Shown: piece by piece, positions 2 through 1,010 of the stretch
Layout: each line of letters opens with the position of its first letter
How positions within the stretch are numbered: position 1 is the stretch's first letter
Origin: Naegleria gruberi
Taxonomy: Eukaryota
NCBI GenBank assembly: GCA_000004985.1
Contig: GG739598.1
Length of the DNA stretch: 1,043 nucleotides
Direction: 5' to 3' (one strand)
Translations under genes and position numbers: made by a program
Notes under the pieces: generated by a model
What the model saw: the letters and a program-made list of their open reading frames with translations, nothing else
The model's database searches: none
Told to the model about the DNA's origin: nothing

Positions 2-127
2 TTTATAACGAAACAAGTTTCATTCAAAGTAAAGGAAATTAAAGATGTGGATTTTCAAGACGAAACTTTTATCAGTTTCACATTGAAAGGTTTTGATTAT
101 TCTGTTGGATTGGTATGTTTAGTTTGA
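2..127 (+). CDS. Open reading-frame segment entering from the 5' edge in the same frame as ORF1, closed by TGA at 125-127. It translates as FITKQVSFKVKEIKDVDFQDETFISFTLKGFDYSVGLVCLV*. It is either the C-terminus of an upstream gene or an upstream exon of the CRIB gene.
   Basis: I hand-translated the frame with codons starting at 2, 5, 8 and so on. It has no stop for 41 codons in AT-rich sequence, where stops are frequent. The amino-acid composition is protein-like and not low-complexity. It is the same frame as ORF1 167..448. No ATG lies in this frame; the only ATG nearby (45-47) is in another frame and is followed by a stop at 84-86. Confidence 0.3.
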   Translation, partial: FITKQVSFKVKEIKDVDFQDETFISFTLKGFDYSVGLVCLV

Positions 128-160
128 TTTAGAATATCTAATTCTTACATTAAACGAAAG
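113..160 (+). other. Candidate short spliceosomal intron (GTATGT donor, CTAAT branch-like element, AAG acceptor). It would splice out the TGA at 125-127 and join the upstream open frame to ORF1 in phase 0.
   Basis: GTATGT at 113-118 follows a complete codon (ttg 110-112). CTAAT at 138-142 lies about 19 nt upstream of the AG at 159-160. Resuming at 161 keeps the frame: ...SVGL|RLLENTEK.... This is the only frame-preserving AG downstream of the donor before ORF1. An AAG acceptor is non-canonical, which is a weakness of the call. Confidence 0.2.
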
Positions 161-166
161 CGATTA

Positions 167-448
167 TTGGAAAATACTGAAAAATTCACTCAAGACTTTC
201 TTAATCTTTTACGAGAAAGGGCCGAGCATTCGAATTTGGAATTGGAAAGGCCAATAATTCCCAAACAAAAGAAACGATTTTCATTCATGTTTGGATCACT
301 TTTATCAAATCAAAACGAAACTAAACAAGCAACAACACCTCGATTAAGAATTTCCCTTCCTCACACTGATCAATTCAAACACGTTAATCATGTTGAATGG
401 GATTCTGAATCGAAACAATTAATTTACAAAGAAATGAATCATCCTTAA
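167..448 (+). CDS. Small CRIB/PBD-motif protein, a probable Cdc42/Rac (Rho-family GTPase) effector of the Gic/Borg/SPEC/RIC type. Stop-to-stop the frame is open from 128. The annotated TTG start at 167 comes from the prokaryotic-style ORF caller and is probably not the real start. The first in-frame ATG is at 287. It is likely a 3' exon or C-terminal portion of a longer CDS.
   Basis: The translation contains I-S-L-P-H-T-D-Q-F-K-H-V-N-H-V-E-W-D. This matches the CRIB consensus I-S-x-P-x(2-4)-F-x-H-x2-H-V-G-(aromatic)-D at every conserved position except G->E. It is preceded by the polybasic PKQKKRFSF. Codon usage is coherent: AAA, GAA, TTG and ATT are favoured. The stop TAA at 446-448 is followed by AATAAA. 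Confidence 0.75.
   Translation: MENTEKFTQDFLNLLRERAEHSNLELERPIIPKQKKRFSFMFGSLLSNQNETKQATTPRLRISLPHTDQFKHVNHVEWDSESKQLIYKEMNHP
260..403 (+). other. Polybasic patch (PKQKKRFSF, nt 260-286) followed by the CRIB motif (ISLPHTDQFKHVNHVEWD, nt 350-403). This is the membrane-binding plus GTPase-binding module typical of small Cdc42 effectors.
   Basis: I mapped residue positions from the ORF1 translation. I62 is at 350-352 and D79 at 401-403; K33-R37 are at 263-277. In the Gic1/2, Borg and SPEC families a basic cluster sits immediately N-terminal to the CRIB motif. Confidence 0.6.
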
Positions 449-572: not shown

Positions 573-1010
573 ATGCGAAAAAAATGGACAACATCTAGGG
601 CACGGAATTTAACTTCCCAACAACAAGAAAATGATTCGGATGGACAAAATGAGAAAAATACAGCTGTGGAGCAACAATTGGCTCCAAAATTGCTTACTAA
701 TTTTTTCAATAGCATTACAAAACTTGATCGGAAAGAATTGGATAAATTTATTGATTGTGATAAGATGAATAGAGATGAGGATGGAATGAATTTGGGTTGT
801 GATGTTGTATTGAAACAAAAATTGTGGGGACTCTCTGTTGGACATGTTTTGGTTAATCGAAGTGATGATGAAGTATGTTCATGTTCGGAGGGTAGAGATT
901 CAATGATTGAGAAAGTGAATGAAATGTTAATTTATTTGATGGATTTGGGATTGGATTTGAATGTGGAGGAGAGGAAGAGTTTGATGAAACCAGATTCATC
1001 TCGCTGCTAA
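573..1010 (+). CDS. Hypothetical 145-aa protein with no recognisable domain. It has a basic N-terminus (MRKKWTTSRAR), a Gln/acidic stretch, a CxC pair (VCSCSEG) and an acidic, Leu-rich C-terminus (MDLGLDLNVEERKSLMK).
   Basis: This is the first ATG in an open frame that begins after TAA at 510-512. The start context is A-rich. Codon usage matches ORF1: TTG for Leu, GAA and AAA favoured, no CTG. The stop TAA is at 1008-1010. The overlapping antisense ORF is low-complexity, which supports the + strand as coding. Confidence 0.55.
   Translation: MRKKWTTSRARNLTSQQQENDSDGQNEKNTAVEQQLAPKLLTNFFNSITKLDRKELDKFIDCDKMNRDEDGMNLGCDVVLKQKLWGLSVGHVLVNRSDDEVCSCSEGRDSMIEKVNEMLIYLMDLGLDLNVEERKSLMKPDSSRC

Follow-up and report, generated by a model that had tools for sequence, protein, structure and literature searches.

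A probable 48-nt intron in a divergent WASP-like gene, at an intron position shared with a Willaertia magna homologue

Introduction

Several kinds of eukaryotic protein combine a basic patch with a CRIB motif. Yeast Gic1 and Gic2 and the mammalian CEP/BORG and SPEC proteins are small, non-catalytic CRIB effectors in which these two elements are the main GTPase-binding element; to our knowledge none of them has a WH1-like domain. Mammalian WASP and N-WASP have a WH1 domain, a basic region and a CRIB motif in that order, which is also the order predicted for the protein described here.

WASP paralogues that keep the N-terminal domains and lack the CA or VCA region, the short WASPs (S-WASPs), are found in some fish and in basidiomycetes (Kollmar et al., 2012, PMC3298513). 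Their origin has been explained as duplication followed by domain loss, and multiplication of WASP has been reported in the heterolobosean Naegleria gruberi (PMC3298513).

The DNA analysed here (the window) is a stretch of 1043 nt, about 31% GC, in which an ORF caller had placed ORF1 at 167–448, beginning with TTG. An earlier note, made from the sequence alone, had proposed that this start was mistaken and that a short intron separated the ORF from an upstream exon of a larger protein. We reach the same gene model by comparison with a homologue: bases 113–160 are very probably (at about 0.88, on sequence evidence) a conventional U2-type GT-AG phase-0 intron in a WASP-like eukaryotic protein-coding gene. 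An intron with its donor at 113, preceded by an upstream exon, is held with higher confidence than the exact interval 113–160. The comparison supports a predicted structure in which the window contains the last two exons of the gene, 2–112 (partial) and 161–448, on the + strand.

Results

Reading frame and gene model

Read from base 2, frame 2 meets one TGA, at 125–127, and no other stop until a TAA at 446–448; both long ORFs of the window terminate in TAA. The opening from the left edge to that lone TGA, which the earlier note had described, was verified by translation. In-frame ATGs occur at 287 and 434 alone; a scan of frame 2 found none in 2–286 (so also none in 2–112). The first of them had been said to lie 3′ of the basic patch, and the coordinates (KQKKR at 263–277) bear this out. 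Feature positions are collected in Table 1.

Table 1. Positions of predicted features in the 1043-nt window.
Feature	Position	Strand	Basis
Partial upstream exon, 37 codons (FITKQ...YSVGL), frame 2, 5′ end outside the window	2–112	+	Open frame; homology to P0001
Predicted 48-nt phase-0 GT-AG spliceosomal intron, holding in-frame TGA 125–127	113–160	+	Signals; GC; homologue's intron position
Predicted 5′ splice site GTATGT	113–118	+	Directly after complete codon TTG (110–112)
Branch-point-like CTAAT, putative branch A at 141, 19 nt before acceptor G	138–142	+	Sequence match; putative function
Predicted 3′ splice site AG, context cgaaAG/cga	159–160	+	First AG past the branch-like element
Terminal exon, 95 codons plus TAA	161–448	+	Open frame; GC 0.33; CRIB homology to P0001
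Putative C-terminal alpha-helix of WH1-like fold, RLLENTEKFTQDFLNLLRERAE	161–226	+	Collinear with P0001 119–140 (QFYNDEEANRFQTVLKELMEE)
TTG, caller's start; internal Leu codon, second L of R-L-L-E-N	167–169	+	Translation
Basic patch IPKQKKRFSF (KQKKR 263–277)	257–286	+	MAFFT alignment with P0001 220–233, IPKGSKKKSLLKRF
First in-frame ATG; internal Met, not a start	287–289	+	Frame scan
CRIB motif, ISLPHTDQFKHVNHVEWD	350–403	+	Sub-threshold Pfam PBD; P0001 alignment
TAA stop, 13 codons past the CRIB core	446–448	+	Open-frame scan
ORF2, ATG-initiated, 145 aa, 124 nt past the ORF1 stop	573–1010	+	ORF call

Homology to a Willaertia magna protein

The spliced 132-aa translation matched exactly one of 1.84 billion protein representatives (HMMER, E 1.2e-4). 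This is P0001, the 518-aa hypothetical protein ABK040_010665 of the heterolobosean amoeba Willaertia magna (GCA_041937235.1, JBEGDK010000157.1). In a tblastn search against the raw window, P0001 residues 82–118 align with bases 2–112 (E 5e-8), so that the stretch FITKQVSF...GFDYSVGL, singled out in the earlier note, is 46% identical between the two. The HSP lies wholly upstream of the caller's start and stops precisely at base 112, immediately 5′ of GTATGT. This exon has a Smith-Waterman score of 90, whereas its shuffles averaged 25.9 (sd 3.9; z = 16.6, 0/2000). The first exon is thus coding and homologous to P0001, and the proposal that the TTG start at 167 was wrong holds, there being coding sequence upstream of it.

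A second tblastn match places P0001 residues 268–293 on bases 344–421 (E 0.002), covering the CRIB motif, in the same order as the first and, after splicing, in the same frame; the CRIB part has z = 6.45 (1/3000 shuffles). Taken alone, the first 42 codons of the second exon (161–286), which lie between these two matches, do not resemble P0001 significantly (z about 0), and the translation of 113–160 shows no similarity by the shuffle test (z = −0.04).

Since window residue 1 corresponds to P0001 residue 82 and 2–112 contains no ATG, the actual initiation codon, together with about 80 residues of the WH1-like domain, must, judging by this alignment, lie 5′ of the window. This agrees with the larger protein, with an N-terminus 5′ of the window, that had been postulated.

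P0001 itself has a strong Pfam PBD/CRIB match (E 8.7e-14) and a nearly full-length WH1 match (profile positions 12–109 of 111; E 0.021, or 0.0023 for residues 1–160) that falls below the gathering score. Its best solved relative is N-WASP (E 1e-8), with which the GBD aligns well; at the end of WH1 the alignment is weak, P0001 LVGLQFYNDEEANRF lying opposite N-WASP QVALNFANEEEAKKF. The window and W. magna differ sharply in codon usage: in the window, TTG accounts for 55% of Leu codons and CGA for 38% of Arg codons, versus 8% and 5% in W. magna, and GC3 is 0.28 versus 0.16. W. magna was therefore rejected as the source of the window, which is most likely nuclear DNA of an AT-rich eukaryote not represented in the protein collections searched; the intron position shared with W. 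magna (below) suggests a heterolobosean.

Other searches gave no relatives. A word-indexed homology search returned zero matches for the spliced protein and for ORF2 (5.8 billion proteins for the latter). Exact-protein look-ups found neither the TTG ORF (as translated, or with M) nor ORF2 on record; an exact DNA search, a protein-guided scan of metagenome contigs and a scan of viral contigs found nothing; and searches of PDB sequences with the spliced protein and of Rfam gave only chance matches (a cytoglobin at E 0.39, and E 0.68, respectively).

Splice signals and the shared intron position

GTATGT at 113, CTAAT at 138–142 and AG at 159–160 are all present where the earlier note had placed them. 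Two other AGs fall within the proposed intron (121–122 and 131–132), both upstream of CTAAT, and there is no AG between CTAAT and 159–160. Excision of 113–160, a multiple of three, gives ...GFDYSVGL/RLLENTEKFTQDF..., removing the sole stop and leaving the frame continuous. In 20,000 shuffles of bases 101–166, 1.7% had a GTAWGT donor and an in-phase AG with frame 2 uninterrupted. The GC content of the segment, 0.23, is the lowest of any in the window (flanking exons 0.28 and 0.33, intergenic sequence 0.27). By themselves the splice signals are suggestive rather than decisive for an intron here; it is the homology evidence that decides.

The exon structure of the W. magna locus (L001) was reconstructed so that P0001 was reproduced exactly, the gene model itself being a prediction, and contains three GT-AG introns of 74, 102 and 61 nt. 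The second is a phase-0 intron exactly between ...HYNYLVGL and QFYNDEEA. In the ungapped alignment this is the codon boundary, and the phase, of ...GFDYSVGL/RLLENTEK in the window. With three introns distributed over about 1554 possible positions, the coincidence can be estimated at roughly 0.2%. W. magna intron 1 shares the donor GTATGT (the other two begin with GTAAGT) and ends in AAAG, resembling the acceptor context in the window. The five W. magna introns recovered measure 58–102 nt, all of them longer than the 48 nt predicted here. The break in homology at 112 and the position of the W. magna intron both support the 48-nt interval proposed earlier, whose removal takes out the TGA and keeps the frame.

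A neighbouring W. magna gene (L001 11850–15480, − strand) has a single 58-nt GT...AG segment whose removal reproduces the annotated product length; its donor, GTTATT, is atypical and its GC content, 0.28, is exon-like, and the annotated intron there may be an artefact.

Two readings dispense with splicing altogether. In the first, TGA 125–127 is a real stop, and the window holds either the end of an upstream gene followed by a small ORF from ATG 287, or a decaying WASP-like pseudogene. This reading would fit a protein that is cut short relative to P0001 13 residues past its CRIB, that has E in place of a consensus G in that motif, and that has no identical or close counterpart in the collections searched. 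However, the WH1-like domain would then lack its C-terminal helix, ending ...VGLVCLV, and the CRIB ORF would start past the basic patch. The stop also happens to lie within a segment bounded by a perfect donor and an acceptor, with a branch-like element, whose removal preserves the frame (the 1.7% of shuffles given above), and which begins at the codon boundary of the homologue's intron; neither exon has any further stop or frameshift. We consider a genuine stop very unlikely.

In the second, TGA is read as a sense codon, through a variant nuclear code or programmed readthrough, and 113–160 is translated. The length of the segment, a multiple of three, and its having one stop only would allow this. 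But the resulting insert, VCLVxFRISNSYIKRK, has no counterpart in P0001, as its z-score indicates, and including it brings the alignment score only to 91, from 90 for the first exon alone, as against 102 for the spliced form. That both long ORFs finish with TAA tells us only that TAA acts as a stop. This reading would also leave the splice signals and the conserved intron position unexplained, and translation through the TGA appears extremely unlikely.

Boundaries of the intron

A further alternative keeps the intron and moves one of its ends: the donor at 113 might be used with a later in-frame acceptor, ending at 226 (a 114-nt intron) or at 271 (159 nt), or a weaker donor, GTTTGA at 122, with the acceptor at 160 (39 nt, giving ...VGLVCL/RLLEN...). 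Every one of these keeps frame 2 open, and the lack of significant P0001 similarity for 161–286 taken alone means that the acceptor is not fixed by homology. The W. magna introns, at 58–102 nt, also exceed 48 nt.

As to the donor, the W. magna intron sits exactly after GL, which corresponds to 113, and GTTTGA is unlike the donors of the W. magna gene, whereas GTATGT matches. The spacing from GL to the conserved helix F leans the other way: it is 10 residues in P0001 and N-WASP, 11 in the donor-122 isoform and 8 in the 113–160 isoform.

As to the acceptor, AG 159–160 is the strongest candidate when set against the in-frame AGs that end at 226 and 271: it is the first AG past the branch-like element, and the sequence after it is exon-like in GC and open for 42 codons in stop-prone, AT-rich DNA. 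Use of either later acceptor would delete the closing helix needed to complete the WH1-like fold, and that at 271 half of the basic patch as well. Smith-Waterman scores against P0001 slightly favour the same choice, by small margins: 102 for removal of 113–160, 98 for 113–226, 94 for the donor at 122, 91 for readthrough and 82 for a donor at 104. Boundaries other than 113–160 therefore seem unlikely, and we infer from sequence that AG 159–160 is the acceptor.

The predicted protein

With 113–160 removed, the exon at 2–112 would provide the last three predicted beta-strands of a WH1-like domain, and 161–226 its final helix. This assignment is putative and transitive, through P0001: P0001 119–140, with which the helix segment is collinear, aligns in turn with N-WASP NFANEEEAKKFRKAVTDLL, so that the pattern at the end of the N-WASP WH1 domain (GL-x-[FL]...E..F) is seen in the window by way of the P0001 alignment. 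The similarity of the helix segment to P0001 is not significant alone.

Only about the C-terminal third of the domain is in the window, and this fragment has no Pfam WH1 match. Nor did chimeras of the P0001 N-terminus with each window isoform produce one, so that the isoforms cannot be ranked in this way. AlphaFold2 models from two-row alignments had mean pLDDT values (35.5 for P0001, 40.8 for the spliced window protein) too poor for fold searches; in the low-confidence model of the window protein, exon 1 forms three strands and residues 44–60 a helix, a pattern that is consistent with the assignment but carries no weight. A two-sequence profile of the WH1-like region found only non-significant matches in the PDB (best E 0.11), none of them a WH1 structure.

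The segment DFQDETFISFTLKGFDYSVGL of the window (50–112) and P0001 96–118, (I)SFQS.N..S..IKHYNYLVGL, are weakly like AbfB beta-trefoil repeats (PDB 3kmv, E 0.18; 9nxi, E 1.4). The resemblance is not significant, and probably reflects convergent strand patterns.

The basic patch lies about 24 residues before the CRIB motif rather than immediately adjoining it. MAFFT aligns it with the KGSKKKSLLKR patch of P0001, a similarity that is not significant alone. The CRIB motif ISLPHTDQFKHVNHVE has seven of the eight consensus residues of ISxPx2-4FxHxxHVG, the exception being G to E. Its Pfam PBD match (E 0.065) scores 14 bits, below the cut-off of 21.3, because profile positions 2–21 alone are present.

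The C-terminal end

What follows the CRIB motif in WASP proteins is absent here. The ORF ends 13 residues past the CRIB core, without the autoinhibitory region (WAID), a proline-rich region or a C-terminal VCA (WH2, central, acidic), and a tblastn search found no resemblance to the C-terminal half of P0001 in any frame of 449–1043. In the gapped MAFFT alignment the TAA at 446–448 coincides, to one codon or less, with the end of W. magna exon 3, and this truncation at an exon boundary of the homologue hints at an origin by loss of the downstream exons. In this region (404–448 of the window, L001 11097–11158 in W. magna), the end of the window protein, YKEMNHP and stop, lies opposite P0001 WKEIFEKA, encoded by the last codons before W. 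magna intron 3.

Ways of restoring a longer protein were considered and rejected. Splicing out the stop would need a donor, and there is no canonical GT donor between 393 and 469, so that any such bypass would destroy the CRIB motif. The sequence TCATCCTT (439–446) is like a U12 donor from its third base on, but its first two bases are not those of a donor. ORF2, as a possible missing WASP C-terminus, has no similarity to P0001.

Sequence downstream of the stop codon

Two AATAAA sequences (464–469 and 482–487) occur just past the stop, along with a second CTAAT (462–466) followed by an AG at 479–480, which resembles the 3′ part of an intron without a usable donor. Poly(A) signals may lie in 449–490, or this stretch may be what is left of the intron found after the equivalent exon in W. 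magna.

No Pfam family matched ORF2 (best E 0.076), which has a strongly positive GC skew (0.6–0.77) throughout. It has the appearance of an orphan, a neighbouring gene in a compact genome. A second GTATGT (873–878) falls on a codon boundary (phase 0) of ORF2, which has no stop that would require an intron. In-frame AGs nearby would give an intron of only about 39 nt, and this GTATGT is probably due to chance, about 0.4 such hexamers being expected per strand.

Discussion

The proposed expression of this gene would be conventional. GTATGT would be recognised by U1 and A 141 of CTAAT would serve as the branch point; the exons would be joined at 112/161, linking ...GFDYSVGL to RLLENTEKF..., dropping TGA 125–127 and yielding one continuous protein with a WH1-like domain, a basic patch and a CRIB motif. 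If WASP-family proteins are a guide, the basic patch and CRIB motif, the latter with its G to E change, may bind acidic lipids and GTP-bound GTPases of the Rac/Cdc42 type.

The finding at 113–160 is in itself an ordinary one, a routine correction of a gene model by a conventional intron. A bacterial-style ORF caller applied to eukaryotic DNA produced a false TTG start and hid an exon. The protein is a divergent WASP-like one; its one mildly novel point is the apparently VCA-less architecture of a WH1-like domain with CRIB.

Since it has no WAID, proline-rich region or VCA, the window protein as predicted cannot activate Arp2/3, the defining activity of the WASP family. It is conceivable, though we lean against it, that it is a functional, naturally truncated WASP paralogue, composed of the WH1-like domain, basic patch and CRIB motif and nothing else, which arose by loss of everything past the exon in which the CRIB ends. 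Such a protein might act as a decoy or adaptor, binding active Rac/Cdc42-type GTPases and WH1 ligands without activating Arp2/3, and so damp or localise WASP signalling. For the evolution of the WASP family, a protein of this kind would be a modest curiosity, similar short WASPs having already been described.

The closest comparison is with P0001 of W. magna, which shares with the window protein a collinear CRIB motif and, in the MAFFT alignment, a similar basic patch (IPKxxKK..S...F). A linker of about 60 residues separates the WH1-like domain from the CRIB in the window protein; that of P0001 has about 130. Beyond the CRIB, P0001 has a region matching the N-WASP GBD, a PLPPIP stretch, a WH2-like motif and an acidic, W-containing tail, whereas the window protein has none of these.

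Set beside mammalian WASP and N-WASP, the window protein is like their N-terminal regulatory half, and its CRIB sequence, FKHVNHVEWD, resembles the FQHIGHVGWD of N-WASP. With the small CRIB effectors Gic1/Gic2, CEP/BORG and SPEC we found no sequence relationship. The S-WASPs are similar in domain content to the predicted protein, and differ in detail: basidiomycete S-WASPs end shortly past the WAID, whereas the window protein ends before any WAID, and fish S-WASPs lack the basic region, whereas the window protein retains its basic patch.
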